This document shows, one piece after another, positions 3,597 through 45,414 of a DNA stretch of 64,000 nucleotides. The translations under genes were made by a program, and so were the position numbers. Positions within the stretch are counted from its first letter, which is position 1, and the number at the start of each line of letters is the position of its first letter. Under the pieces are notes generated by a model that saw only the letters and a program-made list of their open reading frames with translations, was not told the DNA's origin and searched no databases. This DNA is from an uncultured Pseudomonadota bacterium (GTDB lineage: Bacteria > Pseudomonadota > Alphaproteobacteria > Rs-D84): positions 20,535 to 84,534 of the forward strand of contig CASFOK010000001.1 in assembly GCA_949296475.1 (NCBI GenBank), given 5' to 3'.

Positions 3597-4772
3597 ATGA
3601 AAAGGTTGGTTGGGATTTTTCTTGTTACATATTTTATGTGTGGCACTGCTTTTGCGGCGCAGTACAAGGCCGCTTTGGTTGCAGATATGGATAGCGGGCG
3701 AATACTTTATCAGGAAAACGCAAACGTTCAAAATTATCCAGCCAGTTTGACTAAGATTATGACTTTGTATTTAACGTTTGATGCGTTGGAACACGGACGT
3801 TTGCATTTAGACGATTATTTGATTGTATCACAATCTGCGGCGGCTGCGTCACCTGTTAAACTGGGGTTGACCGCAGGCAGTAAAATAAAAGTAGAAGATG
3901 CGATAAAGGCTCTGACGGTGTTAAGTGCTAATGATGTCGCGCGCGTGTTGGCAGAAAATTTGAAAGGCGGAAAAGAGGGGAATTTTGCAGAACTAATGAC
4001 GCGCGTGGCGAATGAAATTGGTTTGTCTGGGACTAATTTTGAAAACTCGTCTGGGTTGCCGAACGATGACCAATTATCAACTGCGCGTGACATAGCGTTA
4101 TTATCCATGGCGATTTATAAGCATTTCCCTCAATATTGGAAGTATTTCAGTATCAAAACGTGGACTTATAACGGTAAAACGTATACTAACGGAAACAGGT
4201 TGTTGGGGACTTATCCGGGGTGCGATGGCATGAAAACGGGTTATACCAATAAATCGCGCTATTCGTTGGTTGCAACGGCTAAACGTGATAATCATCATTT
4301 AATATCCGTTGTTTTGGGCGCTGAAAACAAAGATGTTCGTGCAAATACCGCGGCAAAACTGTTAAACAAAGGTTTTGCTATGGTTGATAGTGGCGATGTG
4401 CCTTCTATGTCGCAGACTTATTACGCGCCTGCGCAAACTGTTGATTATTCTGCGCCGACGTTTAAGGCGGCATATAACGCTGCTACAACTGGTGCGTCGC
4501 AATATAAAACAGTTGATAATTATGCGGATAATAAGTCCGATAACAACTTAACTGCTGGTGGGGCGGGTGTGCAGTTTGGTGCTTTTTCTTCGCGCAGTGC
4601 CGCGCAAAAACAGGTCAGCCTTGTTAAGAATAAACTGGGCATCAGCACGGTAATTGAAGATGCGCCAAACGGAATGTATCGCGTTCGCGCAAACGGTTTG
4701 TCAGACAGTTCTGCGCAAAATGTAAAAAGCAGGGCAGACAACGCCGGAATTGATTGTTATATATTTCACTAG
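3597..4772 (+). CDS. dacC: D-alanyl-D-alanine carboxypeptidase (PBP5/6 family) with C-terminal SPOR domain
   Basis: Signal peptide. SxxK motif (ASLTKIMT). SPOR-like C-terminus (GVQFGAFSSRSAAQ...YRVRANGL). Confidence 0.85.
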   Translation: MKRLVGIFLVTYFMCGTAFAAQYKAALVADMDSGRILYQENANVQNYPASLTKIMTLYLTFDALEHGRLHLDDYLIVSQSAAAASPVKLGLTAGSKIKVEDAIKALTVLSANDVARVLAENLKGGKEGNFAELMTRVANEIGLSGTNFENSSGLPNDDQLSTARDIALLSMAIYKHFPQYWKYFSIKTWTYNGKTYTNGNRLLGTYPGCDGMKTGYTNKSRYSLVATAKRDNHHLISVVLGAENKDVRANTAAKLLNKGFAMVDSGDVPSMSQTYYAPAQTVDYSAPTFKAAYNAATTGASQYKTVDNYADNKSDNNLTAGGAGVQFGAFSSRSAAQKQVSLVKNKLGISTVIEDAPNGMYRVRANGLSDSSAQNVKSRADNAGIDCYIFH

Positions 4773-5378: not shown

Positions 5379-6202
5379 GTGAAGAAACGTTACAATCTTT
5401 ACCGCCCGTATCGGATATGATGCGTAATGCCGGTCTAGAACCCAAGAAACAATTCGGTCAAAATTTTTTATTTGATTTGAATTTAACCGGTCGCATAGCA
5501 AGAAGCGTTCCAGATATAACCACTACAAACGTTGTAGAAATAGGACCGGGCCCTGGCGGTTTAACGCGTGCGTTATTAATGGCGGGGGCTTTGCGTGTTA
5601 TTGCAATTGAAAAGGATAAAACAACCGAACCTATATTATCAAAAATTGCGGACAGTGCATACGGTCGTTTAAGTGTAATTTATGCGGATGCTTTAAAGGT
5701 AGATTTTACAAAACTTGGTATAACGGATTATGCAATATGTTCTAATTTGCCTTATAACGTTGGAACGGAATTATTTATAAATTGGTTATTGCGCATGGCG
5801 CAAGGAGAGCCCATTAAATCAATGACATTAATGTTCCAGCGCGAAGTTGCACAACGTATAACAGCAAAACCAGGCGATAAGCAATACGGTCGGTTAAGCG
5901 TGTTGACTAGTTTAATTTCAGACGCAAAAATTTTGTTTGATGTACCTAATACCGCGTTTGTACCGCGCCCAAAGGTACAAAGTGCAGTCATACAAGTATT
6001 GCCGAACGTGTCAAAGATAAAAAAACTTGGTGACGTTGGGGCGCTGGGTACAATGACCGCTAAACTTTTTGGTCAGCGGCGCAAGATGATACGCGGTATA
6101 ATACCAGGAATTGATTGGTCGCAATTTGGTTTAACTGGAACGGAAAGAGCGGAAGATTTATCACCGGAAACGTTTGCACAAATGGCAAAAATTTTGGTAT
6201 AA
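5375..6202 (+). CDS. rsmA: 16S rRNA (adenine1518/1519-N6)-dimethyltransferase
   Basis: KKQFGQNFL motif and SAM-binding EIGPGPGGLT. ATGA overlap with recR. Confidence 0.9.
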   Translation: MSEETLQSLPPVSDMMRNAGLEPKKQFGQNFLFDLNLTGRIARSVPDITTTNVVEIGPGPGGLTRALLMAGALRVIAIEKDKTTEPILSKIADSAYGRLSVIYADALKVDFTKLGITDYAICSNLPYNVGTELFINWLLRMAQGEPIKSMTLMFQREVAQRITAKPGDKQYGRLSVLTSLISDAKILFDVPNTAFVPRPKVQSAVIQVLPNVSKIKKLGDVGALGTMTAKLFGQRRKMIRGIIPGIDWSQFGLTGTERAEDLSPETFAQMAKILV

Positions 6203-8575: not shown

Positions 8576-10150
8576 ATGGTAAAGTATTTAGATAATAATT
8601 CTGGCTTTCAGCAATGGAGTGCGAATAAGTACGCACAAGAAAAGTCAAAATCACGTTGGGGTACTTTTTTTTGGTGGTTGATGTTGTTCTTGGCAGCGTG
8701 GTGGTTAATTGGCGTTATGATGGGACCGAAACCAGCCGCTGAAACCGCAGAAGACGCAACCGTGGTCACAGAAGATTTGTCTGGCGTTCCTGTGTCAGAG
8801 ATAAAGTCTGATGACATTACCGCCAACGTTCAGGGGTTGCGAATTTATGATGTAAAATTATTAAATTTTGCTCAGGACAGTTCCGTCGCGGATAGCGGAC
8901 CTGTGTCTTTGTTATCCCAAGACGGCGCATTTGCCGAGGTTGGCATTTTATCACCGGGCACATCTGCCCCTGTTGCGAAAACCGTGTGGAAGAAAGACGG
9001 TGATACATTTGTCTGGCGTAATTCTGATGGTATTGAATACCGCAGACAGATAAGTGTAGACGGGTATTTAATTTCCGTGTCGGACACAATCAAGAACGCT
9101 TCGGGTAAAGACATCAGTGTTGCACCGTACGCCAGAATCGTTCGTGCAAACGATGTCGTTTCGTCTGCGGGCGTTTACACCGGTGCAATTGCGTATGCTA
9201 ATTCAGATATAGAACGAGACGATTGGCACGACATAGACAAAAAGTCTTTTGCATATTCAACGACAACCGGTTTTATTGGTTTCGCAGATCAATATTGGGA
9301 AACGATTGTATCTGTGGACAGTCCGGACCAGACGTTGCGTATAAAAAAGACGGGTGATTTGTATCAGGCGGACGTTGCGGCAAACGCCGTTTCCGTATCT
9401 GCCGGGGAAAGCAAAACAATAACGACGAACTTGTTTGTCGGCCCGCGTGAACAGCGCGTATTAGATTTAGTGTCTGCCAAGATTGCCGGCATAGACGATA
9501 CGATTGATTACGGATGGTTTTGGTTCTTGGCGCGTCCTATGTTATGGGCGTTAAACGGTTTGAACTCAATTGTTATGAACTATGGCGTAGCGATAATAAT
9601 ATTGACGATATTGTTACGTATTTTGATGTGGCCGCTTACCAGAAAGTCTTATACTTCAATGATGGCGATGCAAAAGATGCAGCCGGAACTGACGCGCATA
9701 CAAAAATTATACGGTAACGACAAGATGCGCTTGCAGATGGAAATGATGAAACTGTATCAGACGCACAAGACTTCACCGATGTCAGGGTGTTTACCTATGT
9801 TGATACAGATACCAATTTTCTTTGCGTTGTACAAGGCGTTATTGATATCTGTTCAGATGCGCAGTGCCCACTTTTTATGGATATCTGATTTAGCGACCAT
9901 GGACCCATATTTCATATTACCGATATTGATGGGGGCAACCATGTGGTTACAACAATATTTACAGACGCCTGCGAAAAGTAACGGTTCTGTGAACGATGCG
10001 GTTGCGCAAACACAAAAGGTTATGAAATGGATGCCGTTATTATTCACAGTTATGTTTGCGTGGATGCCTGCGGGTCTGGTGTTATATTGGACGATGTCAA
10101 ACGTTTTCGGCATCGGCCAGATGTATTACATCAAGAAATTTAACAAATAA
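8576..10150 (+). CDS. yidC: membrane protein insertase YidC
   Basis: 524 aa with a large periplasmic domain and the conserved C-terminal 5-TM core. Confidence 0.9.
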   Translation: MVKYLDNNSGFQQWSANKYAQEKSKSRWGTFFWWLMLFLAAWWLIGVMMGPKPAAETAEDATVVTEDLSGVPVSEIKSDDITANVQGLRIYDVKLLNFAQDSSVADSGPVSLLSQDGAFAEVGILSPGTSAPVAKTVWKKDGDTFVWRNSDGIEYRRQISVDGYLISVSDTIKNASGKDISVAPYARIVRANDVVSSAGVYTGAIAYANSDIERDDWHDIDKKSFAYSTTTGFIGFADQYWETIVSVDSPDQTLRIKKTGDLYQADVAANAVSVSAGESKTITTNLFVGPREQRVLDLVSAKIAGIDDTIDYGWFWFLARPMLWALNGLNSIVMNYGVAIIILTILLRILMWPLTRKSYTSMMAMQKMQPELTRIQKLYGNDKMRLQMEMMKLYQTHKTSPMSGCLPMLIQIPIFFALYKALLISVQMRSAHFLWISDLATMDPYFILPILMGATMWLQQYLQTPAKSNGSVNDAVAQTQKVMKWMPLLFTVMFAWMPAGLVLYWTMSNVFGIGQMYYIKKFNK

Positions 10151-10154
10151 ACTT

Positions 10155-10182
10155 TGAACGCCCAGACGGGCGTTTAATTTTT
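10155..10182 (+). terminator. rho-independent terminator after yidC
   Basis: aacgcccagacgggcgtt hairpin followed by a T-rich tract (taattttt). Confidence 0.6.
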
Positions 10183-10553
10183 GCATATAAAGCGTTTGGT
10201 GTTTGTATAAATGGTGCTTTGTTTATACCCAGGACTTGTTTAGTTAAATCCACGCAGGTTTTTGGTTTCTTATATTCGTAAGTATGTTTTTGATTTATGC
10301 ATACGAATTCCCAGCCTGCGTTTTTTAATAATTGCATACTGTTAATAGTCAGCGGGATTTTTACAATATGCTTATATTTAACAAAGTGCAACATTATAAA
10401 GCGATTGTTTTTTCTAAGTATGGGTGCGCAGTGCTTGTACCTGCGACAAAATATTTTCGGTATAAATTTAGAAGTTTTTTTTGCAAAGGCGACGATAATC
10501 ATAAAGAATCCTTTTGTATATTTTCGCACGCCTGAACGGCGTGCGGTATAAAA

Positions 10554-10904
10554 CTATTGTTCAATCCAACCGCGTTGTTTTGCGGCGTTTTCTAGCACCT
10601 GCATTGCGCGTCGCCATAAATCTGCGTCGTGATTTTCGGCCCATATGTATTGATGAGGCGCGCGTCTGCGGTCACCAAATTTTTTCATTACGTCCAATTG
10701 TTCTTCGGTTATTCGGCCGGAAAGGTATAGTTTTGTAATCAAAGATTCTACGTCTAATAATTCGCACGGACGTTTGGTGCAATTTGTTCTTGTTCGCAAG
10801 AAACCGTTTTGTACAGATTTAGAATACAAGAACCAAAACCACAATTGTTCTGCGTTTTGAAATTTTTCTGCGGTATATAAAGTTTGTATGTTTTGCGATG
10901 TCAT
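10554..10904 (-). CDS. hypothetical small protein (116 aa). It is the promoter-proximal neighbour of the T4SS core operon but lies in a separate transcription unit.
   Basis: Not AT-biased junk: Trp-rich (WFWFLY), balanced composition. No family recognised by eye. Confidence 0.45.
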   Translation of the reverse strand: MTSQNIQTLYTAEKFQNAEQLWFWFLYSKSVQNGFLRTRTNCTKRPCELLDVESLITKLYLSGRITEEQLDVMKKFGDRRRAPHQYIWAENHDADLWRRAMQVLENAAKQRGWIEQ

Positions 10905-11073: not shown

Positions 11074-11101
11074 AATAAAAAAAGTGCGCAAAAATGCGCA
11101 C
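11074..11101 (-). terminator. rho-independent terminator on the minus strand, 3' of virB10
   Basis: gtgcgc-atttttg-cgcac hairpin followed by T7 on the minus strand. Confidence 0.55.
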
Positions 11102-11201
11102 AGAAAAATCATATTTAACTTTGTTTATATTGTTATAGTTACACCTCCTATGATTTTCAATATTGGTTAAAAACAAACCCGCCAAATTGGCGGGAACTTG
11201 T

Positions 11202-13652
11202 TTACTTTATGGGTGGGAAGCAATCGCCACCTGTTTCTGGACAGCAATTGAAGCCCTGGTCGCCCATATCTGTATAAATTTCACCTATGCAGCAACCGTA
11301 TTCATCTGGGATTGTGCCGTCGGGGCACGTTAATACGTTCGTAGTTGTTTCCACGGGCAAGGTTTCCGTACTGGTATTATCTTGGAACGGGTTTTGAATA
11401 ACCCCATCTTCATAAGTTAAACCAAGTATATCTTCATTATATGCCTGACTACCACTTATTCCTGTTAAACCTGTTCCTGTACCAAACTCGGAACCTGTAC
11501 CATAATTTGCTTGGAATTGTTGTTGTTGATTTTGATACAGTGCATCTTGTTTTGCGTTGTTTATCGCTTGGTAATTTAGCGACTGACAATATGCCAAAAC
11601 AGTTCTGTAATCATAACCAGATTTATAAATTTCTTCTATTTTGTCTTTATTAATCTCAAAAAGACCGTTAGAATCTTGTTTGCAATATTCTTCTCTCAGA
11701 TTAAACGAACGTACCTGACCAACCCACGAAGAATCTTCATAATCTACATCTACAGAAGAGGGTTTCTTATTCCATTCATCATTACGTAGATTGCGATTAT
11801 CCAGCCTGGTGTTTTCTTTAACGTTTTTAACAGAACATTCTTTTGTGTTATCGTTGCCACATGTAATTACCAAATCTTCTGGTGAAAATACGGTTATACG
11901 TGTACCAGCTGCAATTGAAAATGGTGGTATTGTATTGTCCATTGCATCAACCAGTAATTTCTGTGCAACCTGATTCCATGCAGTTATTATTTCATTCTTT
12001 GCAAGCTCAGAAGAACGTACTGTACCTGATTGAACAACTGTATTGTTATCCAAATCAATTTGGTTAACAAACGTATCTGCGATTGGTGCAATCATATTTA
12101 CCGCAGCCGGAACAATCGCAGTCAGCATTGGCATAACAATTTGTTCAACATAGTCTGTACTGCCATGCCCCGGAACCCCCGCGCGCCCCTGTGAGTCGCC
12201 AGAAAATGGGTTGTTATCATGAAAATTGAATTCAACACCATTTGGTAATATAAATTGATACCATTCTATTTGCATACGACCAATTGATTTATATGGTCCA
12301 GGTAATTCACCGGTTACATATCCCAACAGCAACGTACCAGTTGGTATAATAACAGTACGACCATCATCAGAATATACGTTTCTATCAACTGTTGCGCGTA
12401 CTGGTAATGTTTGCTTTTTACATGTTCCTGTTGAATCGCAACCATATAAAGAAGGGTCTGCGCGAACTTCGGATACGATTGTTGCAGGAATTGGTTTATA
12501 TTGTCTTAATACAAACTTTCTATCAAATGGGTCGGATGAAAAAACCGCGCTTTTACTACTGCTGCCTATCTGAATTTCAGTTTCAGGATTGTTTAATGTT
12601 ATTCTAAAAATATTGCCTGTTTCTGTTGTTGCATCGGCGCTTTGTGGTAACGCGGCCAATTCGTCGGCTGTTAATTGCCGCGCAAGATTTTTTTCTTTTT
12701 TAGGTGCAGGATTTGATAATTGCGGAATTTCACGATTTATAACGTTGGTATAACCGATGTGTTCCGCATCTGTTCCTATTTTCGTAATATTATCGTTGAT
12801 GTCTGTTATTATACCTGTATCAGGATTGTATACGCCTGTCGGGCTGTCACAATTTTTATCTGAAAAAGGATGGTAATAATACGCGCCTGCTTCTGGACGA
12901 ATCCAACCGCTTTGCACACCTGATAAGTTGTATCCAGGAAACGCAAAGTCAGAACAAGACTCTGCCGGTTTTGCAGGTTGCGTTTCAGGTGCGGTTTTGG
13001 GCGACACATCTATAAAGGGATCCGATGGTGCAATTTCTTTGATTTCTTGTTTTATTTCCTGCTTTACCGTTTTAACAGGCTCGGGTTCCGGTTGGGGTTC
13101 GGGTTCTGGTTGTGGCGCTGGTTCTGGTTGCGGTTCTGGTTCTGGCGCCTTTTGTGGTGTATCGGCACTGACGATGACGTTCGTCTTTGTTGACTTTGTC
13201 ATCGCATCGGGTTCTTGGGTACCGTGCCACTTTACAACCAGTTCAACAATTTTCGTAGATACATCACTTGTCGGTTGATAGTCCAAGGTAATTGTACACT
13301 TATTTTTAGCATCTATCTGATTTTTAGCAACGCATGTTTGATTCATGCTTAAACCAGGAACCTGTTCAAGAAAGTTTACTTCAACGATTTTTGTTGGGGC
13401 GTTGGTTGATAAATTAACTTGTCTGGTGGTCTTGGTCCCAACCATTGTGTTTGACATGTCTATAATTTCTGGGTCAAACTTTAGTTGTATCGCCACCGAT
13501 TCAGTCGTTTCAATTTTTTCTTTTTCTTTACTTGTTAACAGCAACGTTAACAGAATCATTACAACGACAAACGCAGCCGCCAATAACAACCACTGAACAT
13601 GCTTTGGCGTATTTTTACGTAAATCAGAAATTTGTTGTTTTATAGTACTCAT
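11202..13652 (-). CDS. virB10: Type IV secretion VirB10/TrbI-family protein. At 816 aa it is atypically long. It has an N-terminal TM, a PEPEPQ repeat, a canonical TrbI C-domain, and an extra Cys-rich tail of about 225 aa.
   Basis: From memory, VRATVDRNVYSDDGRTVIIPTGTLLLGYV, SQGRAGVPGHG and PFSIAAGTRITVFSPEDLVI match VirB10 C-terminal domain signatures. Confidence 0.8.
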   Translation of the reverse strand: MSTIKQQISDLRKNTPKHVQWLLLAAAFVVVMILLTLLLTSKEKEKIETTESVAIQLKFDPEIIDMSNTMVGTKTTRQVNLSTNAPTKIVEVNFLEQVPGLSMNQTCVAKNQIDAKNKCTITLDYQPTSDVSTKIVELVVKWHGTQEPDAMTKSTKTNVIVSADTPQKAPEPEPQPEPAPQPEPEPQPEPEPVKTVKQEIKQEIKEIAPSDPFIDVSPKTAPETQPAKPAESCSDFAFPGYNLSGVQSGWIRPEAGAYYYHPFSDKNCDSPTGVYNPDTGIITDINDNITKIGTDAEHIGYTNVINREIPQLSNPAPKKEKNLARQLTADELAALPQSADATTETGNIFRITLNNPETEIQIGSSSKSAVFSSDPFDRKFVLRQYKPIPATIVSEVRADPSLYGCDSTGTCKKQTLPVRATVDRNVYSDDGRTVIIPTGTLLLGYVTGELPGPYKSIGRMQIEWYQFILPNGVEFNFHDNNPFSGDSQGRAGVPGHGSTDYVEQIVMPMLTAIVPAAVNMIAPIADTFVNQIDLDNNTVVQSGTVRSSELAKNEIITAWNQVAQKLLVDAMDNTIPPFSIAAGTRITVFSPEDLVITCGNDNTKECSVKNVKENTRLDNRNLRNDEWNKKPSSVDVDYEDSSWVGQVRSFNLREEYCKQDSNGLFEINKDKIEEIYKSGYDYRTVLAYCQSLNYQAINNAKQDALYQNQQQQFQANYGTGSEFGTGTGLTGISGSQAYNEDILGLTYEDGVIQNPFQDNTSTETLPVETTTNVLTCPDGTIPDEYGCCIGEIYTDMGDQGFNCCPETGGDCFPPIK
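13081..13150. repeat. tandem hexanucleotide repeat (ggttct/ggttgc) encoding (PEPEPQ)n in VirB10
   Basis: Direct reading of the sequence. It translates on the minus strand to PEPEPQPEPAPQPEPEPQPEPEP. Confidence 0.8.
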
Positions 13653-13673
13653 ATTATATCCGCAATCAATATG

Positions 13674-15221
13674 TTACTGTATTCTGACGACGCTGCAACT
13701 TACCCCTTGGGACGCGGTTAACTTGTCACACAGCGTTTGTGCAGTGTCAATATCTGACATCGGCCCTATGCGTAAACGATACAAACGCGCCGTAGAAGAT
13801 TCAGAACCTAAATCGCCAACACCTTGGGCATCAACCGCAAAGAATACCATGTCTTTATAAGGTGTCAGCAAGCCTTGACCGCTGTCACCGCTGAACTTTG
13901 CCAGCAAAGTCGTCCAATAATCTTCCAGTGCTTTTACAGACGTGTCAGACTTCAGTTCTACGGCAACGCCAGATTGGTTCGTGGTAATCAGCGGTATGTT
14001 TGACTGTGGTAAGAAAGAACCCGCAGTTAACCTTTCAGTTGGTATCATTGAAACGCCACTGCTGCCGCTGCTGGTACCATAATTTGCAGCCGGAACGCCG
14101 TAACCCGCCGGCATGTAATATCCAGTTGTTGTGCCACCGGTCATATTATTGCCAACAAACATTGGCGTAGTGGTATAATTACCCACACCATAGTTCATCG
14201 CTGATACATCTGCGTTATACGCAATATTGTTTAAAGATTGTCCGGACATCATGCTTTGGGCAACATTCGCCTCGGCCAATGCCATGACAGATGCTGTGTC
14301 CGCAATCAAGAACGGTTTTTCACGTTTCTTTATGCAGACGATACGTTGACCGCTGCGCAATACCATATCGCCGACCGCTTCTACTATTAACAGACGACCG
14401 TCTTCACCATCCGTGCGGAAACCAACAGGTGATTCACCGCCTTCTACCAGTAAAGAAACAACCGGTCTTTGCGTCATAGATATAACTTTGTCGCCAAAGT
14501 CTATGTACGTAAATATTCTATCGCGCCAGACGCGTTCAGGCGCAATTACATAATCATCTGGGTTGGGTACGAATATATCTAAGTCAAACCTGAACTCTGA
14601 CGGGTCAATTTTCATGGATTTTATCCACCCATAGTCTTCGCCGTCAACACCGACGGTATTGCTGTCCACCGAAGATACCGTTTTAAATATGGACGATGAA
14701 CCGCCCACAGCCACGCCTGTTGAACCGCTGGCATTTGGTAATACCGCGTTATTGTCCAATACGACTTCTACTTGAGAATACGTAACCTCGCTGGCGTTTG
14801 AAGGTTCGCTGCGCAGATAGAATATGTACTGATTGCCGGATTTTCCAGTTACAATAAAGTTCGTGTCAGAACCTTGGTTACTTTTTTCCGGGGTGATTAG
14901 TATGGTGTTACCGCCCTTGGTTGCGTCAAAGGAAAATAAGTTCTTGTTGCCAACCACTGCATCTTCTATTTGTTCGCCGTTTGGCAACGTTATCATCGTT
15001 ACCATGCCGTTACGCAGTTTAACGGGTAAAACCGTACCCTTGGACCATGTCAATTGCGCATATCCGGGCTTCATACTGCCGGCGGTCATGTTTGCAGATG
15101 GGTTATTCCAAGCGTCTTGCACGCCATAATTAGTCGCAATTGCGTTGCCTGATATACAAACAGAGCAAACCAAAAAGAAACAAAATATAGATATATTTAA
15201 CTTTGCACCTGTTGAAAACAT
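13674..15221 (-). CDS. virB9: Type IV secretion VirB9/TrbG-family protein (515 aa). It has a signal peptide, VirB9 N- and C-domains, and a 210-aa extension ending in a SPOR-like module.
   Basis: GNTILITPEKS...DTNFIVTGKSGNQYIFYL corresponds to the tNLxVxTdkRtYxFxL signature. IFTYIDFGDK...LLIVEAVGDMVLRSGQRIVCI corresponds to the VirB9 C-domain. The C-terminus LYRLRIGPMSDIDTAQTLCDKL...CSVV is SPOR-like. Confidence 0.75.
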   Translation of the reverse strand: MFSTGAKLNISIFCFFLVCSVCISGNAIATNYGVQDAWNNPSANMTAGSMKPGYAQLTWSKGTVLPVKLRNGMVTMITLPNGEQIEDAVVGNKNLFSFDATKGGNTILITPEKSNQGSDTNFIVTGKSGNQYIFYLRSEPSNASEVTYSQVEVVLDNNAVLPNASGSTGVAVGGSSSIFKTVSSVDSNTVGVDGEDYGWIKSMKIDPSEFRFDLDIFVPNPDDYVIAPERVWRDRIFTYIDFGDKVISMTQRPVVSLLVEGGESPVGFRTDGEDGRLLIVEAVGDMVLRSGQRIVCIKKREKPFLIADTASVMALAEANVAQSMMSGQSLNNIAYNADVSAMNYGVGNYTTTPMFVGNNMTGGTTTGYYMPAGYGVPAANYGTSSGSSGVSMIPTERLTAGSFLPQSNIPLITTNQSGVAVELKSDTSVKALEDYWTTLLAKFSGDSGQGLLTPYKDMVFFAVDAQGVGDLGSESSTARLYRLRIGPMSDIDTAQTLCDKLTASQGVSCSVVRIQ

Positions 15222-15239
15222 TTTTCTTTCCTTCCGTTT

Positions 15240-15923
15240 TTATATACTCGTTTCTACTGAATAACCGGTATCCAGTGGGTCACCGTTTCCAGAATCTATT
15301 TCGTATTCCGAAACGCGAAGCCCCAGCGGGTTATTCAAACGATCTGACCAGTCTATTCGTGCGTTATCGCTTTTATCCACTTTTATTTTTATTCTATACT
15401 CTTTTTTATCCGACTGTCTATCATTATCTGCACAGAAATAATAAAATTTTACAATATATGTGTCTTCTGCGTGCGGGGTTAGTGCATTATTATCAAATTC
15501 CACGCTGCAAGAAAACTCAAAATCCGGCAAGTCAGACATCCAAGCGTTCCACATATTGGTTTGCGTAAATTCGTTATAAACTTCCTGGGTTGACCATGCG
15601 TGAACAATACTGTCTGGTCCATCGTTATTCCATTTTGTGCGCATTAGCCCCGCATTAGGTACGATTTCGTTTCTTGCCTTGACGTATTCCAAGATGAACG
15701 CTTTTTCATAGTTTATGAAATTTTCATCCGAAGGCGCCATTTCTCGCAATACGATTTGCAGATCGCTTTTTGGACGAGACATCAAGAAAAATACTTGTGG
15801 GCGATTTACGGGAAACATATTATATAACGTAAACAGCAACGCAACCAACACAACCAGCATTCCTGCGAACACGAATGTCATCAATCTGGATAGCAAAATT
15901 GGCGGTTCTATGCGGTCTTGCAA
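15240..15923 (-). CDS. virB8: Type IV secretion VirB8/TrbF-family protein (227 aa, bitopic)
   Basis: Short cytoplasmic N-terminus, a single TM, a periplasmic domain, and a C-proximal NPLG motif (RLNNPLGLRVSEY). Confidence 0.7.
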   Translation of the reverse strand: MQDRIEPPILLSRLMTFVFAGMLVVLVALLFTLYNMFPVNRPQVFFLMSRPKSDLQIVLREMAPSDENFINYEKAFILEYVKARNEIVPNAGLMRTKWNNDGPDSIVHAWSTQEVYNEFTQTNMWNAWMSDLPDFEFSCSVEFDNNALTPHAEDTYIVKFYYFCADNDRQSDKKEYRIKIKVDKSDNARIDWSDRLNNPLGLRVSEYEIDSGNGDPLDTGYSVETSI

Positions 15924-16154
15924 GCGTTCCTCTCCCTGTTATTATAAAGATTGTAGAAAAAAATCGGACACCTATGCAAGTAAAAAGTGCAGCGAAATCA
16001 TATTTTAATTAATTTTTATGAATAATTTTTACTTGCTTGTCATTAATTAAAATCTTATAATACTTTCCACTTGATTTTTTGTATAGTTGTGCTATTGTAT
16101 CGCAGATCATTGGGGTCAGCGGCATAACAGACGGACAAGTACAGTAATTGAATT

Positions 16155-29337: not shown

Positions 29338-29418
29338 ATTGTTTTTATAGGAATAGATGAATATTGATATTGTTTAAAATTTAAGCGATTTTTGTATTGT
29401 ATATAAAGGTTGTATAAT

Positions 29419-32112
29419 ATGAAAAAATCGCTTGTTTTTGTGTCGCTTATTGTTTGTTCAAGGGCGTATGCCACGGATGTAGATAATTTTACCGATTTTT
29501 ATAACGCGTATAAGAATTATGCGACAGAAAACAGCATAACTATAACAGGCGACATAACGTCAACGCGTTTAATCAGCGTACCCGGTGCAGAAAGTACGAT
29601 AATTAACGGGGGCGGTTTCGGTTTTGATGGCGGGGCATTTAACGGCTTTACGGTGTCAAGTGGGTATACAATGTCTTTGACGGACGGGGGCGGTTTTACT
29701 GTTTCTGGTCAAACGGCCAATGTGAATAGTTCTTTTAATAATTTTTATCAATCTGGACAAGGGGCGGTATTTGCAAACCTTGGTGGTAGTTTGACTGTAT
29801 CTAACTCTGCGTTTACAAATAATTCTGCACGTTTAGGGGGCAGCGTTTTTTATCAAAGTAATAATGCTACTTTGAACGTGTCGGATAGTGTTTTTGATAC
29901 TAACACCACAACGCGAAATGGCGGTGTAATATATACACAATACGGTACGAATGCGATTATAAACAACAGTTTTTTTCAGGGAAATTCAGCCAGTCAATAT
30001 GGAGGGGTTGCGTTTAATGACGGTAATTTGACTATATCTAATGGTGTGTTTGTTTCAAATACAGCATCAAGTGGTGCGGCGATATATAATTCTAATACGA
30101 TTACATTAAGCGATGTTTATTTCTCTGGAAACACCGGCAGTCAAGGCGGTGGTGCAATTTATAGCACGGGTATGATGAATCTTGAAAACGGTATATTTGA
30201 AAATAATACAGGTCAAACGGGCGGGGCGATTTCAAATTATGGCATAGTGGGTGATACTTTATATGCAGTGATAAAAAATGCTAGTTTTACAGGTAACAGT
30301 GCTACATACGGTGGTGCGGTGTATAATTGGGATGATATGTATATAATAGATAGCAGTTTTACAAATAATTCTGCAACAGATAATGGCGGTGCAATATTTA
30401 ATTTAAATGCGTTGTTTTTGATTGCTCAGAACGCGGATATCGTATTTAGCGGAAATACAGTATCCGGTGAATCTAATGCGATTTATTCGTCTGAATCGTT
30501 ATTTTTAAATGCGGCGCCACAATATCAGATAACTTTTAATGACAAGATTACAGGTTCTGGTTCGTTGATTGTGAACAGAGCATATGAACTGGAAAATGAT
30601 ACAATGCCAGCCGGAGGTACCATAGTTCTAAATGAAGATATGTCAGGGTTTACAGGGAACGTAACAATAGAATCCGGCATTGTAACAGTTACAGATAGCG
30701 GTAATTTTTTTAATGCAAACGATTTAACTGTTTCAGGTGGCGTTTTAAATTTAGGTTTAACAAATGCAACGGTTACTTCTGCAAACTTTCAATCTGGTGC
30801 GACTTTACGTTTGTCTGTTCAAGATGTGGATAATTATGGTTTTTTAACGGCGGATTCGTTTAATATATCTGAAAACGCCGCAATAGATGTGATTCTTGGC
30901 AGCAGTGCTATGGATGGCGTCAGTTCTCTGCGATTACAATTATTGCGCAGCAGTCAGGTTATAACGGATAATTTCTTTCCGGAAATAAGCAATAATATTT
31001 ATGATTTTATAAAACTTGGTAATGGTTGGTACGAAATTGTTCAATCAAGTTCAGTCTTGGATGTTATAAAAAACGCCGGAGGAACACAAAATAATGAAAA
31101 TACCGCGCTTGGATGGCAGGATATGTTGCTGACCGATAACAGCGTAACGAATGAAGTTTATGAAAAACTAAATGAGTTGGTTCAATTAGATGCGGTTGAG
31201 TATATAAAGGCGTTAACTGCTTTGGCGCCTTCACCTGCGCCACTGATGCAGATACTTGGTACTGCATATATTGATAGACTTGATAATATGGTGCACGATA
31301 GGCAAGAATATTACGTTGGTAACGGAATATTGTGGGGTTCGTTGTTTGGTTCGGGTGGTAAATTAAAAGAAAATAATTTTTATGCGGACTTTGATATACA
31401 TGGTTATGGTTTAGGCTTTGGTGCCGAATATAATTTTGATAATTGGGACGTTGGTGCCGCGTATACGTATCAGTACGATAAATTGGCAAGTTGGGCAAGG
31501 TCAATTATTGCGCCTACACATGGCATAGGGCTGTATGCAAAATATGATAACCGAAGTTTCATTTGGAATAATTATGCCGGTTTCTTTTATACGGATATGG
31601 ATGAAACGAAAAACGTTGCGGGAATACACTTGTTTGATAACACGGATGTTTATACAACTGGTGTGTGGTCTGACATAGGTTATGTTGTACCTGTTTATAA
31701 ACTAAATTTTATCCCTTACATAGGTACTCGGTACATGTCGGTGCATCGTGGTTCTTCTGTTGATACAGCAGGTCAAGAAATATCAAACGCAAATTTAGAT
31801 TTTTTAACCACGTATGCAAGATTGTCCGCAGAATACAATTTCAGTTATGACGATGAATTGACGATTACGCCTATAATAGAATTAGGGGCATCATATGATT
31901 GGCACGCGGCTGTTGAAGATATAAACGTGCTTATAATGGGAAATGAATATTCTATTGCTACACAACGTTTATCGCATTGGCAAACGTCCGGGGGCATAAA
32001 ACTAAAATTAGGTGTTGGTGAAGTTTACGACGTAACGTTCGGTGCAGATTTTTCCGTTAGACAAGGGTATTATAACTATTCTGGTAATATACACGGCGTT
32101 TTAAGGTTTTAG
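29419..32112 (+). CDS. autotransporter with Pmp-type (Chlam_PMP-like) repeat passenger and C-terminal beta-barrel
   Basis: Signal peptide MKKSLVFVSLIVCSRAYA. At least 8 FxxN...GGA[IVL][FY] repeats. The C-terminal roughly 280 aa is rich in alternating aromatics and ends in F (GVLRF). Confidence 0.75.
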   Translation: MKKSLVFVSLIVCSRAYATDVDNFTDFYNAYKNYATENSITITGDITSTRLISVPGAESTIINGGGFGFDGGAFNGFTVSSGYTMSLTDGGGFTVSGQTANVNSSFNNFYQSGQGAVFANLGGSLTVSNSAFTNNSARLGGSVFYQSNNATLNVSDSVFDTNTTTRNGGVIYTQYGTNAIINNSFFQGNSASQYGGVAFNDGNLTISNGVFVSNTASSGAAIYNSNTITLSDVYFSGNTGSQGGGAIYSTGMMNLENGIFENNTGQTGGAISNYGIVGDTLYAVIKNASFTGNSATYGGAVYNWDDMYIIDSSFTNNSATDNGGAIFNLNALFLIAQNADIVFSGNTVSGESNAIYSSESLFLNAAPQYQITFNDKITGSGSLIVNRAYELENDTMPAGGTIVLNEDMSGFTGNVTIESGIVTVTDSGNFFNANDLTVSGGVLNLGLTNATVTSANFQSGATLRLSVQDVDNYGFLTADSFNISENAAIDVILGSSAMDGVSSLRLQLLRSSQVITDNFFPEISNNIYDFIKLGNGWYEIVQSSSVLDVIKNAGGTQNNENTALGWQDMLLTDNSVTNEVYEKLNELVQLDAVEYIKALTALAPSPAPLMQILGTAYIDRLDNMVHDRQEYYVGNGILWGSLFGSGGKLKENNFYADFDIHGYGLGFGAEYNFDNWDVGAAYTYQYDKLASWARSIIAPTHGIGLYAKYDNRSFIWNNYAGFFYTDMDETKNVAGIHLFDNTDVYTTGVWSDIGYVVPVYKLNFIPYIGTRYMSVHRGSSVDTAGQEISNANLDFLTTYARLSAEYNFSYDDELTITPIIELGASYDWHAAVEDINVLIMGNEYSIATQRLSHWQTSGGIKLKLGVGEVYDVTFGADFSVRQGYYNYSGNIHGVLRF

Positions 32113-33462: not shown

Positions 33463-33487
33463 AAAAATCCCCAAATGGGGATTTTTT
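33463..33487. terminator. bidirectional terminator between convergent mraZ and the 785-aa gene
   Basis: aaaaatcccc-aaat-ggggatttttt. Confidence 0.65.
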
Positions 33488-35843
33488 AGGGTTCTTCATC
33501 AGGGTCACATGTGTTTGTTTCGGAATTATATGTCCCCGTGTTGCATACGCAACTTGGATAAGTCCCTGTTGAATCAGCCGGGCAAGTGGTTGTCACAGCG
33601 TCTGCGTCACATGTGTTGGTTCTTTGGTTATAAGTATATCCTGCATTGCACTGACAGTTAGGATATTTTGAACCCGCTTGTGCGTTTGCCGTCGGGCATG
33701 ACATACATACGTTAGATGTTGGTATATATGTTGCCGATGAACTGGTGCAAACACAATCTGGGTAAGTACCACTTGCATTAGAAGGACAAGTCGGATTTGA
33801 TAATACCTGACCAACCCAGTTTGCCATATCAGAAACGCTTGTTCCTGTTGCGCCTGTTGCAGACATACATGTGGTTATATTGGCTTTACATGCGTTGATA
33901 GCGATGTTTATGCTTGTTGGATTTAATGTATTATAATTATTCTGTGCCAAGCAAGAAGATACGTCTGTTATACATGTTTCTGCATATTCTGATAACAACG
34001 AGTCTTGGGCAGACTTAATTTGTATCAGCGTGCGGTTCAAGAACTCTTTTATCACGTTGTTTGTCGGATTGTATTTCAGGTTTTGACCCGTGCCAGTATA
34101 AGTAATATCTTGGCATTTGTTTAATACAGACATGCACATGCCGTAATTTTTGCCGTCTTTGTCGTCGTGGTATCCGATTTTGTTTTGTAAAAATGCGGAC
34201 ATATTTGTAGACGGACTTTGTGAAGCGTTGGCAGTAACCGTGTTTGTTATGTATTCGCTTAGTAAGCCTGAATCACCCCAAGCATTTTTATTGTTATCGT
34301 ATGTCCATGTTTGATATATTTCACCGTTGTCAACGTCACCTGGAACGCCTGGTTTGCTGCCGATGACTATTTCGCCGTTTACGATAAACTTACCTGTTGG
34401 ATCCAAACAGTTTTCATAATCGCTGCCACAGACAAAGTCGTCCTGCATGCAAGAATCCAACGCATTTACGCAACCGCGTAAATCATAAGCGTTCTTTTGT
34501 TGTGCAACCAATAAACGTGCCTTTTGTAAAACGCTTTTTGCGTTTCTGACGGTCGCGCTCATTTGGTCATTAGAATCAGTTAAACTGCGTTCATATATGA
34601 TACATTGCTTATCAATTTCCAAATCATACGAATTTGTTATGACCGTGATATCAACGCCTTGGGCTGCGCAACTGTTTAATACAGATGCTTTACAACGAGC
34701 CGCCGCCGTTTTATACAGTTGTTCGCCACGTTGATTGCTGATGCTGCTGGTGTCCGAAGAAGTGCCCAGTAATGCCCCTAAATCAAAACCAGTGCTGTCA
34801 ATCGTAAAGTCCAGTAACCCTGTTAAGTCCAGACTTAAACCGCTGGTCGTTGTAGAAGATGCTTTTCCTGTTTCAACGTCAATAATCATCTTTTTGATTT
34901 TGTCCAGGTCGTTTTTCAGCTGAGTATTATCAGTTGTCGTCTGCATTTCTAATTCAGCCTCGGTCTGTGTGAACAGCGTTTCTATTTCATCGGAACTTAG
35001 ACCTATGTATTGGATTTTTTGGGCGACGTCTTGCAGTTCTTCGGTTGCTTGTTTCAAAGCAGCCTCTGTTTCTGCGTAATTTTTCAAGTTCGCACTGCAA
35101 CTGCAACGACCTTGGTTATCATCTAATACGTTACAGAAGTTATCCATACAAGAGGTATATTGTGCCTTACAAAAATCTGTAATCTGTGCCAATTCATCTA
35201 ACGACATGCTGGAAGAAGTATCCGTCGTGGTTGTAGTTGTTGTCCCAGCGCGAATCGTCGGGGTGCGCGAACGAACAGCAGACGTACTTGTTCCTACGCG
35301 GCTGCTAACGTACAAGGGGGTTGCAACGGTGTCGGTCTGAACAATTGATGCTCTTGCATTTTGTGCCCTGTTATTATTGGTAGAACTTTGGCGCGTTGTC
35401 ACTGTCTGCACGGGCGCAATAGAACGAGCAGAAGTAGTCGCGGTACTTCCTGTTGTCGTTGGACGCCCAGACGATACCGTTCTTGTTGAAGTTGCGGTGT
35501 TAACCGTGTTCGTTGCTGTCGTTCTTGCAGTAACTGTACGCGCCGGTGAAACTGTTCTTGTTGTTGTGGTATTGCGACTGCTTGTCGTGCTAGTAGAAGG
35601 GATTGCACGTGAAGCCGTTATTCTACCTGTTGCAGTACGCGGACTTACAGATGTTGTCGTAACAGGAACAACCGGGGCCGCTTGCTTTGTTTCTGTTTTT
35701 TCTTCTGCGACCTGTTCTTCCTCGGCAGGTGCAGAGTATTCGTCAGAATACTCCATCACTTCTTCGTAATAATAAGCAGGTGCAACCTCGGCAAAAGCGG
35801 GTAAAACCAACAAGCCACTAAGTACTGCGATAAATCTTTTCAT
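33486..35843 (-). CDS. secreted 785-aa protein. It has a signal peptide, an acidic stretch, a roughly 190-aa Thr/Ser/Arg-rich low-complexity region, a coiled-coil-like segment, and a large Cys-rich C-terminal region with 3 tandem roughly 26-aa Cys repeats.
   Basis: MKRFIAVLSGLLVLPAFA signal peptide. The region RTVSPARTVTARTTATN... Repeats of the form G[ST]YPxCxCxxG.TYN..TNTCD. Confidence 0.7.
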   Translation of the reverse strand: MKRFIAVLSGLLVLPAFAEVAPAYYYEEVMEYSDEYSAPAEEEQVAEEKTETKQAAPVVPVTTTSVSPRTATGRITASRAIPSTSTTSSRNTTTTRTVSPARTVTARTTATNTVNTATSTRTVSSGRPTTTGSTATTSARSIAPVQTVTTRQSSTNNNRAQNARASIVQTDTVATPLYVSSRVGTSTSAVRSRTPTIRAGTTTTTTTDTSSSMSLDELAQITDFCKAQYTSCMDNFCNVLDDNQGRCSCSANLKNYAETEAALKQATEELQDVAQKIQYIGLSSDEIETLFTQTEAELEMQTTTDNTQLKNDLDKIKKMIIDVETGKASSTTTSGLSLDLTGLLDFTIDSTGFDLGALLGTSSDTSSISNQRGEQLYKTAAARCKASVLNSCAAQGVDITVITNSYDLEIDKQCIIYERSLTDSNDQMSATVRNAKSVLQKARLLVAQQKNAYDLRGCVNALDSCMQDDFVCGSDYENCLDPTGKFIVNGEIVIGSKPGVPGDVDNGEIYQTWTYDNNKNAWGDSGLLSEYITNTVTANASQSPSTNMSAFLQNKIGYHDDKDGKNYGMCMSVLNKCQDITYTGTGQNLKYNPTNNVIKEFLNRTLIQIKSAQDSLLSEYAETCITDVSSCLAQNNYNTLNPTSINIAINACKANITTCMSATGATGTSVSDMANWVGQVLSNPTCPSNASGTYPDCVCTSSSATYIPTSNVCMSCPTANAQAGSKYPNCQCNAGYTYNQRTNTCDADAVTTTCPADSTGTYPSCVCNTGTYNSETNTCDPDEEP

Positions 35844-43932: not shown

Positions 43933-45414
43933 ATGAGAGTCAGTGTAGTTTCTTTGTTAAGTGTTTTTTTTATGCCTTTCGTTGCGTTGGCGTCTAACGA
44001 GGGGGTGCCTTCTTATTATCAGAACAATTCAACAACGACGGTTAATCGTTCGGCATATAATCAATATCAGCGACAAGGATACACGACATATGTTGGTCAA
44101 TCGGGGGGCAAGCAAATTGTTGAAAGTCGTTCTTACTCTTATCAGGTTCCGCGACCGGTGGTCCCGCAAATTAGCGGTACGATGACGACGAACGGTATTG
44201 CGATGCCTGTTGCCGAAGAAGCGGCAACATCTGTATATGCTAAATATGCCAGAAGATTTGCAGATTTTGAATTTGAAACAGGTGTAAATTCCGTCTTGGA
44301 ATGGGATGATATGATTTACAATGAAATTGGTGTTGGCGTACAACATAATTTCAGTTTGCGTAATTTTGATATGTTTGCTTACGGTGAATATAGTATGGGG
44401 TATATGTCACATGGTGGACTGTCCATGGATTATGACTTAAAGCCGTATGATGAATCAGACCCTTCTTATGGAATTTTCACTATTTCTGTTGGCGATCAGA
44501 CGGGCAAGACAAATCACTTGAAGTTAGGAATCGGCGCACATCATATTTGGGACATTGGCGGATGGAAGTTATCCCCGTCGTTTGGTTATGAAATTTTCAA
44601 TCATAACTTGGAAATGTCAGATCATTTGTATCCCAACCCTGGCATCTTTTTACCGTTAATGACGAACATGGGCGACTATGTTTACGGTGATGTAAATGGT
44701 AATTATTATGCTTTACCCATAAATATGGAGGCACCAGAAGATTGGTATCAGGTGTGTATGTCACCGGAAGATATAAAACTGGTTCAGGCCCCCGCAGGTG
44801 GTGCAATAATTGACCTGGGGACAGAGTTGGTAACCGGCGATTACAATCCGGATATGGGGTATGTACCATGGGGTGTAGATTCTGGTGAATGTGTAATTAT
44901 TGGCGGTGATGGTCCTATACTTGTAGACGGTACTACGCATATTTATAATACTACGTGGAGCGGTTTTTATATCGGGCTTGAGATAGAAAAACAAATGACC
45001 CTTGTTGACAAGTTGCGTTTTTATTTCCAGGTTGGTTTGCCGAAATATTCATCCGAAGGTATCTGGCCAAACAGAACGGATTGGCAACAAAACCCCAGTT
45101 TTATAGATGAGGGTAGTAACGGTGCGTACTCTTATACCGCGGAAATGGAGTATAACTATAAATTATCAGACCGTATGCAATTGGCAATAAAAGTAGATAC
45201 CGATTATTTCTATGTCGGAAAAATCGGCGGGGAATTATATTTGGCGGAATATAGTCAATATTTAGTTGATGAAAACGGTTTTTACATATTGGACGATAAC
45301 GGTTTCCCAATTTTAGAAACTGTGCCGGCCAGCACGCAGTATATCAGCGAGCAGTTAAAACACGCTGCGTGGCAATCGTTTGGTTTGCATATCGGAATAA
45401 AGTATTCTTTCTAA
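43933..45414 (+). CDS. putative outer-membrane beta-barrel protein
   Basis: Signal peptide. Gly/Tyr-rich. C-terminal ...IGIKYSF. Confidence 0.5.
   Translation: MRVSVVSLLSVFFMPFVALASNEGVPSYYQNNSTTTVNRSAYNQYQRQGYTTYVGQSGGKQIVESRSYSYQVPRPVVPQISGTMTTNGIAMPVAEEAATSVYAKYARRFADFEFETGVNSVLEWDDMIYNEIGVGVQHNFSLRNFDMFAYGEYSMGYMSHGGLSMDYDLKPYDESDPSYGIFTISVGDQTGKTNHLKLGIGAHHIWDIGGWKLSPSFGYEIFNHNLEMSDHLYPNPGIFLPLMTNMGDYVYGDVNGNYYALPINMEAPEDWYQVCMSPEDIKLVQAPAGGAIIDLGTELVTGDYNPDMGYVPWGVDSGECVIIGGDGPILVDGTTHIYNTTWSGFYIGLEIEKQMTLVDKLRFYFQVGLPKYSSEGIWPNRTDWQQNPSFIDEGSNGAYSYTAEMEYNYKLSDRMQLAIKVDTDYFYVGKIGGELYLAEYSQYLVDENGFYILDDNGFPILETVPASTQYISEQLKHAAWQSFGLHIGIKYSF

Follow-up and report, generated by a model that had tools for sequence, protein, structure and literature searches.

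A VirB8-VirB9-VirB10 operon with added domains in Candidatus Enterousia, a probable chromosomal type IV secretion scaffold conserved across the order Rs-D84

Our analysis concerned a 64-kb stretch of DNA (contig CASFOK010000001.1; hereafter the window, meaning that whole stretch) from Candidatus Enterousia, a member of the alphaproteobacterial order Rs-D84, and within it three minus-strand genes of the type IV secretion system (T4SS) families VirB8, VirB9 and VirB10. A first-pass annotation made from the sequence alone had described these genes as tightly spaced, and calling of open reading frames (ORFs) confirmed three ORFs separated by gaps of exactly 18 and 21 nt:

15240..15923, minus strand: virB8, 227 aa (ORF and Pfam)
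13674..15221, minus strand: virB9, 515 aa (ORF and Pfam)
11202..13652, minus strand: virB10, 816 aa (ORF and Pfam)

In profile searches all three products scored above the Pfam gathering cut-offs, which bears out the family identities that the first-pass annotation had read from motifs. VirB8 matched PF04335 with an E-value of 1.5e-12 (48.2 bits, cut-off 23.2; model positions 8-211 of 213), VirB9 matched the CagX/VirB9 family PF03524 with 9.5e-23 (81.5 bits, cut-off 34.2), and amino acids 385-595 of VirB10 matched the TrbI/VirB10 family PF03743 with 2.2e-17 (64 bits, cut-off 35; model positions 5-187 of 188). When 1.84 billion cluster representatives were searched exhaustively, only 788 proteins were returned at E <= 1e-3. 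The three ORFs are not chance ORFs, as they have hundreds of full-length homologues and ratios of non-synonymous to synonymous substitution rates (dN/dS) of 0.04-0.29. VirB8 has an N-terminal hydrophobic or transmembrane (TM) stretch at about aa 12-34 and the sequence NNPLGLRV, with the NPLG motif, near its C-terminus; both features had been pointed out before and are present in the translation. The protein would be bitopic, with one N-terminal TM helix followed by a periplasmic VirB8 domain. Sequence matches to the VirB8 structures 4kz1 and 4mei in the PDB were weak.

VirB9 and VirB10 are unusually long. Compared with the solved R388 proteins TrwF/VirB9 (266 aa) and TrwE/VirB10 (395 aa) they carry about 250 and 420 additional amino acids, an excess that had been put at about 200 and 400 in the first-pass annotation. 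Homologues of VirB9 number in the hundreds, at 505-530 aa and at least 74% identity, and those of VirB10 measure 811-852 aa at 60-90% identity. A signal peptide starts VirB9 and is followed by the N-domain, the C-domain, a low-complexity linker of variable sequence rich in Gly, Asn and Tyr, and a C-terminal SPOR domain. The following parts were delimited, in part with AlphaFold2 (AF2) models and their predicted local distance difference test (pLDDT) scores:

14778..15056, minus strand: N-terminal beta-sandwich, aa 56-148 (AF2 pLDDT ~70 and Foldseek)
14217..14651, minus strand: C-domain and following helix, aa 191-335 (Pfam CagX coverage)
13677..13976, minus strand: SPOR-like peptidoglycan-binding domain, aa 416-515 (Pfam and AF2)

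The alignment to PF03524 runs over model positions 5-197 of 198, so that the N- and C-domain halves are both covered, as had been claimed. In solved systems the N-domain of VirB9 forms the I-layer and its C-domain is the O-layer partner of the VirB10 barrel. The N-domain model resembles the N-terminal domain of R388 TrwF/VirB9 (8rt6/7o3t; Foldseek E 7e-6, rmsd 1.9 A) and Xanthomonas 6gyb_B (E 5e-5), and CagX also turned up in this fold search. The C-domain aligns weakly to residues 165-237 of TrwF, and the AF2 model has a pLDDT of only about 25 over aa 143-416. Its sequence shows 98% mean identity over 39 homologues, the set used for all domain identities below, and a dN/dS of 0.008.

The SPOR match of the window VirB9 is borderline when taken alone (Pfam E 4.9e-6). 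PF05036 was matched, however, in the C-termini of eight out of eight diverse VirB9 orthologues (best E 4e-7, 30.2 bits, cut-off 21); these include the distant lineage of locus L035, and one lineage is 43% identical overall. The alignment covers the second half of the Pfam model only, and no PDB sequence match was obtained for this region. AF2 modelled it with the beta-alpha-beta-beta-alpha-beta, RNP-like topology at a pLDDT of 70-84, and its dN/dS against the closest relative, locus L009, is 0.027. On profile and model evidence we consider it confirmed that VirB9 ends in a SPOR domain under selection, a predicted peptidoglycan binder. In the literature searched, no paper was found that deals with VirB9 together with the SPOR domain, and a 2025 review of T4SSs does not mention SPOR.

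VirB10, whose extra length likewise consists of genuine domains under selection, can be divided into seven parts:

13533..13652, minus strand: cytoplasmic N-terminal tail and TM helix, aa 1-40 (alignment; AF2 helix 17-42)
13161..13493, minus strand: immunoglobulin (Ig)-like beta-sandwich of the ASH/PapD/MSP type, aa 54-164 (AF2 pLDDT 64-86)
12963..13160, minus strand: Pro-rich (PEPEPQ) linker, aa 165-230 (sequence)
12708..12962, minus strand: two-Cys region, aa 231-315, C233...GWIRP...C268 (conservation)
11853..12566, minus strand: TrbI/VirB10 beta-barrel with a two-helix antenna-like insert (Pfam TrbI and PDB sequence matches)
11328..11852, minus strand: post-barrel extension, aa 601-775, with conserved Cys and a long helix (no Pfam match)
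11205..11327, minus strand: 6-Cys C-terminal module, 41 aa (conservation, no Pfam family)

The N-terminal tail has many invariant positions and the TM helix is 93% identical. The Ig-like domain is variable (37% identity) and in Foldseek it hit the ASH domain of CEP192 (6fvi), HYDIN (2e6j) and MSP (1m1s) with E-values of 2e-4 to 4e-4, with weak matches to Pfam ASH and the NCBIfam choice-of-anchor-D family. The Pro-rich linker, which resembles those of canonical VirB10 and TonB, gives low-complexity matches to TonB and PARP. The two-Cys region matched no Pfam family and is 78% identical, with dN and dN/dS of 0 against L009, and its motif C-x-x-[FY]A...GW[IV]...C is kept even in relatives of 30-34% identity. 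The barrel is 89% identical, and its best PDB sequence match is ComB10 2bhv (6.6e-4), followed by CagY 8cb2 and also TrwE 7o3j, TraF 3jqo and Xanthomonas VirB10 6gyb. PDB searches with family profiles, which were too narrow, gave no match for VirB10 and for VirB9 only TrwF (E 0.005). The ComB10 alignment continues through the helical hairpin of the insert, whose antenna helices lie at about aa 500-531 and 548-574 in a low-confidence AF2 model. From sequence and model, VirB10 appears to have the topology of its family, with the TM anchor and the Pro-rich stretch assigned confidently and the two-helix antenna less firmly. The post-barrel extension is the fastest-evolving part (53-71% identity, dN/dS 0.76 against L009).

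The 6-Cys module at the very end of VirB10 has the motif C-x-DG-x-PD-x-GCC-x-GE-x-YTDMG-x-GFNCCP-x-GGDCFPPI. VirB10 orthologues whose sequence extends to the C-terminus retain it (dN/dS 0.058). Singly or in tandem, with one to three copies, it also ends proteins that are otherwise unrelated and are secreted, lipoprotein-like or located in the membrane, including P0295, P0315, P0319, P0347, P0362, P0371, P0375, P0384 and P0390 (loci L041-L069). One family of signal-peptide proteins of about 200 aa bears two to three copies, and the module was present at 60 metagenome loci altogether.

A scan of species-representative genomes yielded 24 loci from Ca. Enterousia and uncultured Alphaproteobacteria of human, chicken, ruminant and termite guts, one of them on a circular chromosome of 958,618 bp (metagenome-assembled genome, MAG, OZ007020.1). 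The gene order nusG / virB8-virB9-virB10-orf116-orf129 / yidC was found in 24 of 24 loci, VirB8 orthologues among them, and further MAG contigs from other branches show the same placement of virB8-B10, so that synteny extends across the order. Proteins identical to those of the window are also encoded on metagenome scaffolds of 105-143 kb. Because its placement between secE-nusG and yidC is constant, we consider the operon chromosomal and vertically inherited. Its GC content is like that of the flanks, and no integrase, relaxase or repeats were found near it. Protein identities over the 24 loci and dN/dS values against L009 are as follows (the pyk row is left out as a coordinate artefact):

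Identity to window proteins: VirB9 67-97%, YidC 60-99%, VirB10 45-89%, VirB8 43-90%
dN/dS, virB genes: virB9 0.037, virB8 0.12, virB10 0.29
dN/dS, flanking genes: rpoB 0.023, yidC 0.017

The genes are thus under purifying selection, and these values indicate a module under strong selection that is neither decaying nor the remnant of a mobile element. Between the window and L009, dS of virB8 and virB9 (0.31-0.39) exceeds the values of rpoB, yidC and kefB (0.09-0.14) about threefold, which could reflect recombination at the locus or a codon-usage constraint on the flanking genes.

Signals around the operon suggest separate transcription:

16057..16085, minus strand: sigma-70-like promoter candidate (consensus scan TATACA-17-TATTAT, 9/12 matches)
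11168..11194, minus strand: intrinsic terminator 1, right after the virB10 stop codon
11074..11101, minus strand: intrinsic terminator 2, the one given in the first-pass annotation
10140..10904, minus strand: orf116 and orf129, two small ORFs downstream of virB10

virB8 starts with TTG, with GGGAGAGG directly 5′ of the start codon. The promoter candidate lies in a 230-nt AT-rich spacer between tRNA-Trp and virB8 and is weak, because the scan gave no more sites than in shuffled sequence. Terminator 2, a hairpin at 11084-11101 with a 7-bp stem and the U-run UUUUUUUAUUU, folds with a dG of -12.4 kcal/mol (z -6.3) and proved to be real. Terminator 1 is GC-richer, with a hairpin at 11178-11194 and a 7-bp stem of which six pairs are GC, followed by UUUGUUUUU (dG -14.0 kcal/mol, z -3.5). 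From the gaps, the two terminators and the synteny, virB8-B9-B10 would form a transcription unit of its own. The earlier view of a separately transcribed and elaborated outer-membrane core thus gains support for the elaboration and, by prediction, for the transcription; VirB8, which it had counted in, is not a subunit of that core. orf116 and orf129 sit past both terminators, with a promoter-like site at 11108-11136. They were found in L009-L032, L038 and L039 (orf116 48-97% identical, orf129 29-84%) and not in the L035 or L037 loci. orf116 is cytoplasmic, and no family was detected for the two in Pfam, NCBIfam and PDB searches (for orf116 explicitly in all three). They always follow virB10 in the Enterousia clade, and their tie to the T4SS module is uncertain.

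The same three families in the same order B8-B9-B10 occur in the VirB system of A. tumefaciens, the Trw system of R388 and the Tra system of pKM101. The likeness to such P-type scaffolds extends to the TM helix, the Pro-rich stretch and the TrbI barrel with hairpin of VirB10 and to the TrwF-like fold of the VirB9 N-domain. The Enterousia proteins differ from them in the added SPOR, ASH Ig-like, two-Cys, post-barrel and 6-Cys parts, and the locus differs in having no adjacent VirB7 and no B11, D4, B4 or B6 and in being chromosomal and fixed across a whole order instead of residing on a mobile element. The closest annotated relatives are encoded on Sphingomonadales megaplasmids (Sphingosinicella p1, NZ_CP035502; Erythrobacter aureus, NZ_CP031358), with 33-37% identity in the VirB9 core. 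With about 430 aa the VirB9 of these plasmids is long as well, and VirB10 measures 530-548 aa, but VirB9 lacks the SPOR domain and VirB10 the Ig-like domain and the Cys modules. These plasmids carry complete conjugative operons with MobA/L, virB2-B3-B4-B5-B6, a 68-aa ORF, B8-B9-B10-B11-D4, topoisomerase III and primase. Since the closest annotated VirB9s sit in such full operons, descent of the Enterousia module from complete systems is suggested, and the stand-alone arrangement is derived, because both the plasmid relatives and P0480, a metagenome relative of ordinary length, have virB11 and virD4 at their loci.

Among the remaining relatives the full-length VirB10 architecture holds down to about 40% identity. 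In more remote VirB10s, 650-820 aa long and 30-34% identical, the 6-Cys tail is missing, whereas the Ig-like domain, two-Cys region and barrel are retained. In the L035 lineage (30% VirB10 identity) a stand-alone module lies between mutS and thrS, unlike the Rs-D84 flanks, and consists of a 57-aa VirB7-like lipoprotein gene (LLSGC, 5543-5716), virB8, virB9-SPOR (490 aa), virB10 (824 aa) and two unrelated small ORFs; no ATPase genes were found within 10 kb of it. A 137-aa ORF after this virB10 (10466-10879) has the C-terminal motif FGDV..D..G.YGYDGD in common with the VirB10 of that lineage, which parallels the sharing of the 6-Cys tail in Enterousia. Another elaboration of VirB10 was seen in giant TrbI/VirB10-domain proteins of 900-2400 aa (P0301, P0308, P0473-P0479) with a 4-/5-fold beta-flower and DUF3659. 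With CagX and CagY, the Helicobacter Cag system, a T4SS for host interaction, offers a precedent for greatly enlarged homologues of VirB9 and VirB10. The extra mass of CagY consists of N-terminal repeats, the extra domains differ from those described here, and the Cag system has its own additional core proteins and resides on a pathogenicity island, not in a fixed operon in housekeeping context.

Taken together, we favour with moderate confidence the reading that the operon encodes the scaffold spanning periplasm and outer membrane of a chromosomal, vertically inherited P-type (VirB/Trb-like) T4SS of Ca. Enterousia, with motor and channel genes presumably elsewhere. The module is ordinary in its family membership and unusual in its domain decoration, its genomic fixation and its degree of conservation. 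By analogy with R388, pKM101 and Xanthomonas, the N-terminal helix of VirB10 would hold the protein in the inner membrane, and its Pro-rich stretch would cross the periplasm. The VirB10 barrel would build the outer-membrane ring together with the VirB9 C-domain, with the two-helix antenna lining the pore, while the VirB9 N-domain would form the inner ring and VirB8 a periplasmic collar on the inner membrane. The VirB9 SPOR domain on its flexible linker most likely tethers each ring subunit to peptidoglycan. SPOR domains favour denuded glycan at septa and division sites, and for this reason the domain may also place the machine at septa or new poles. The VirB7 lipoprotein is the canonical third subunit of the outer-membrane core complex, and SPOR may make up for its absence. 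The Ig-like domain of VirB10 would sit just outside the inner membrane, and the 6-Cys module is probably a common docking or binding unit of VirB10 and other secreted proteins. The near-invariant cytoplasmic tail and TM helix of VirB10 argue for a conserved partner in the inner membrane or cytoplasm. We presume that the genes for VirB3, VirB4 and VirB6, and possibly for VirB2, VirB11 and VirD4, lie elsewhere in the genome, by analogy with comB, which is split, and rvh, which is scattered.

The most likely function of the machine is contact-dependent exchange with a partner cell, which fits the predicted lifestyle of the order. GTDB places the Ca. Enterousia MAGs in Rs-D84, an order known from gut and rumen MAGs with genomes below 1 Mb that are predicted to be obligate symbionts or parasites needing partner cells, and that lack amino-acid, nucleotide and lipid synthesis, respiration and standard transporters (PMC12306168). 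These bacteria are widespread in gut and rumen, and the route by which they obtain partner-derived nutrients is unexplained (PMC12306168). A scaffold so tightly conserved that it bears comparison with RNA polymerase is a concrete candidate for the interface to the partner cell. To this comes that VirB9-SPOR is a natural fusion with a built-in peptidoglycan tether and a possible septal or polar targeting signal, and that VirB10 has doubled in size by domains not seen in solved systems, the 6-Cys module being new. No paper combining Rs-D84 with type IV secretion was found in the literature searched, where a T4SS scaffold of this order is previously unreported.

Several results weigh against this interpretation. 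Two NCBIfam cut-offs were not reached, namely that of the P-type VirB9 equivalog TIGR02781 (57.8 bits, cut-off 217.7) and that of NF038091 T4SS_VirB10 (E 3e-16, 59.6 bits, cut-off 220); since these scores are far below the equivalog cut-offs, VirB9 and VirB10 are divergent members of their families. The AF2 models of VirB9 and VirB10 have a mean pLDDT of 44 and 46, with only sub-domains usable, because the available homologues are all at least 60-74% identical and the alignments therefore shallow; the usable parts do not extend to the C-domain of VirB9, nor to the barrel, its antenna or the B9/B10 interface. Further T4SS genes were looked for by Pfam scans of the larger ORFs and by precomputed Pfam annotation of the flanks. 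In addition, the proteins of a complete plasmid T4SS served as phmmer queries for the window and 32 loci, where each ORF of 60 aa or more was covered. None of VirB2, VirB3, VirB4, VirB5, VirB6, VirB11 and VirD4 was found in the window or 10 kb past each edge, which upholds and extends an absence already remarked upon for virB2, virB4, virB11 and virD4, and in more than 24 related species no further T4SS gene turned up at a distance of up to 10 kb from the module. In phmmer only VirB8, VirB9 and VirB10 were matched. At 60 loci around 6-Cys-tail genes (about 535 kb, several from contigs of 300-850 kb) these three were again the only ones, found at those of the loci that carry VirB10. In none of the Rs-D84 loci does the 1.5 kb upstream of virB8 contain an ORF with a lipobox, and a VirB7 gene could be located elsewhere in the genome. 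Finally, the sole genome-based account of the order is silent on T4SSs (PMC12306168).

Among other explanations, the operon might belong to a ComB-like DNA-uptake T4SS that brings DNA through the outer membrane and hands it to ComEC as a source of nucleotides or DNA. This is compatible with the structural reading given above, and we regard it as unlikely though by no means negligible. In Helicobacter, comB6/B7 precede comB8, and the ComB operon of H. pylori ends in B8-B9-B10. The system is split over separate loci, does without VirB11, VirD4 and VirB5, and works with ComEC (PMC12857230). The Enterousia operon likewise ends at virB10 without a local virB11 or virD4, into both of which the nearest plasmid relatives continue; a ComEC-like gene (645 aa, DUF4131 and Competence domains; L005, 5830-7767) is situated immediately outside the left end of the window, some 13 kb from virB10, and the barrel finds its best PDB sequence match in ComB10. 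In addition, Rs-D84 lacks nucleotide synthesis, and type IV pili have been reported only for another lineage (PMC12306168). However, the PDB E-values of ComB10, CagY and TrwE are similarly weak, and the NCBIfam ComB10 model NF038092 (E 4e-12, 45.8 bits, cut-off 300 not reached) scores below that of VirB10, both being far under their cut-offs, so that there is no specific affinity to ComB10. The ComB proteins are of ordinary length and belong to another phylum, no homologues of ComB2, ComB3, ComB4 or ComB6 were found in the sequence sampled, ComEC is widespread in bacteria not known as competent, and the absence of virB11 and virD4 is established locally only.

It is also conceivable, if rather improbable, that all T4SS ATPases and channel subunits have been lost and that VirB8, VirB9 and VirB10 now form a peptidoglycan-anchored trans-envelope pore, a tether or an attachment organelle. 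The lack of any other T4SS gene in all sampled sequence would agree with this, as would the occurrence of a self-contained module in two very divergent lineages with different flanks, a conservation at housekeeping level that is unusual for T4SS parts, and the added SPOR, Ig-like and Cys modules, which suggest a changed role. On the other hand, the near-invariant VirB10 tail implies a partner in the cytoplasm or inner membrane, a role that the ATPase complex plays in known systems, the sampled sequence covers an unquantified part of any one genome, and split or scattered T4SS loci such as comB and rvh are well known. We know of no precedent for VirB8, VirB9 and VirB10 working without VirB4. 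Should Rs-D84 indeed lack any VirB4, VirB6, VirB11 and VirD4, for which we see little probability, then VirB8, VirB9-SPOR and VirB10 would constitute an ATPase-independent conduit or attachment organelle essential to partner-dependent life, e.g. for the uptake of metabolites or DNA. Such an orphan conduit would be a T4SS scaffold repurposed outside secretion, and complete genomes without VirB4 would make it the first scaffold-only derivative of a T4SS.

A Rickettsiales-type rvh effector system, with which the first-pass annotation had compared the operon, is very improbable. In rvh, B8-B9-B10 continues into B11-D4, virB8 and virB9 are duplicated, and the genes are scattered. Chromosomal, vertically inherited and scattered T4SS genes in reduced, host-dependent Alphaproteobacteria would speak for such a system, as would the label 'Rickettsiales bacterium' that some related MAG proteins bear at NCBI. 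But the B8-B9-B10-B11-D4 continuity is missing at all loci, with no B11 or D4 within 10 kb, and neither virB8 nor virB9 is duplicated in the window. In a comparison that did not extend to rickettsial sequences, the VirB9s of the Sphingomonadales plasmids came out as the closest annotated ones, with Holosporales (Paracaedimonas) weaker at 24-27%. The organism belongs to another order, Rs-D84 (PMC12306168). Lastly, a decaying remnant of an integrated conjugative element, as the adjoining tRNA-Trp, the relatedness to plasmid conjugation genes and the locally missing partner genes might suggest, is effectively refuted by the conservation data, i.e. intact ORFs in every species at the dN/dS values given above, the same position in 24 species, flank-like GC without integrase, relaxase or repeats, and the fact that tRNA-Trp-secE-nusG is a normal housekeeping arrangement.

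Some candidates for additional T4SS genes were rejected. A weak phmmer match to VirB11 in L045 is actually MnmE, a possible virB11/virD4 pair at 40.7-43.8 kb of the window (352 and 664 aa, minus strand) encodes a radical-SAM enzyme and an M13 peptidase, and an eight-gene minus-strand cluster at 47-55 kb, considered as a second T4SS, encodes glycosyltransferases and methyltransferases. ORFs of 2451, 860, 751, 720 and 593 aa beside the module in some species have neither a Pfam domain nor a match to the T4SS reference set. Large Pfam-less ORFs of this kind (593-2451 aa) lie at 12-7367 of L017, 4836-7418 of L018, 5632-7413 of L021, 13522-15777 of L011 and 12825-15674 of L024, and they could encode lineage-specific surface proteins or substrates.

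In the wider neighbourhood, the operon lies among housekeeping genes, flanked on the left by pyrG, pyk, a D-Ala-D-Ala carboxypeptidase gene, recR, ksgA, kefB, lspA and yidC, and on the right by tRNA-Trp, secE, nusG, rplKAJL, rpoBC and plsX, beyond which surface-protein and glycosyltransferase genes follow. The carboxypeptidase (Peptidase_S11; 3597-4772, plus strand) also ends in a SPOR domain, which gives VirB9-SPOR a second fusion of this kind less than 10 kb away. Two chlamydia-like surface families are found in this alphaproteobacterium, a 900-aa protein with Chlamydia PMP repeats (29410-32112, plus strand) and a Protochlamydia-type 'Pom' outer-membrane protein (43933-45414, plus strand). 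A 785-aa ORF at 33486-35843 (minus strand) has no Pfam match and no likeness to the plasmid T4SS reference proteins. An isolated phage-tail-fibre-like gene (46608-47063, plus strand; 151 aa, Mtd_N and Gp53-like tail-fibre C-domain) is located beside an SLT_2 lytic transglycosylase gene. About 2 kb past the right end of the window, an island with integrase, DUF3631, N6/N4 DNA methyltransferase and ResIII helicase genes was identified (L006, 12345-20753).

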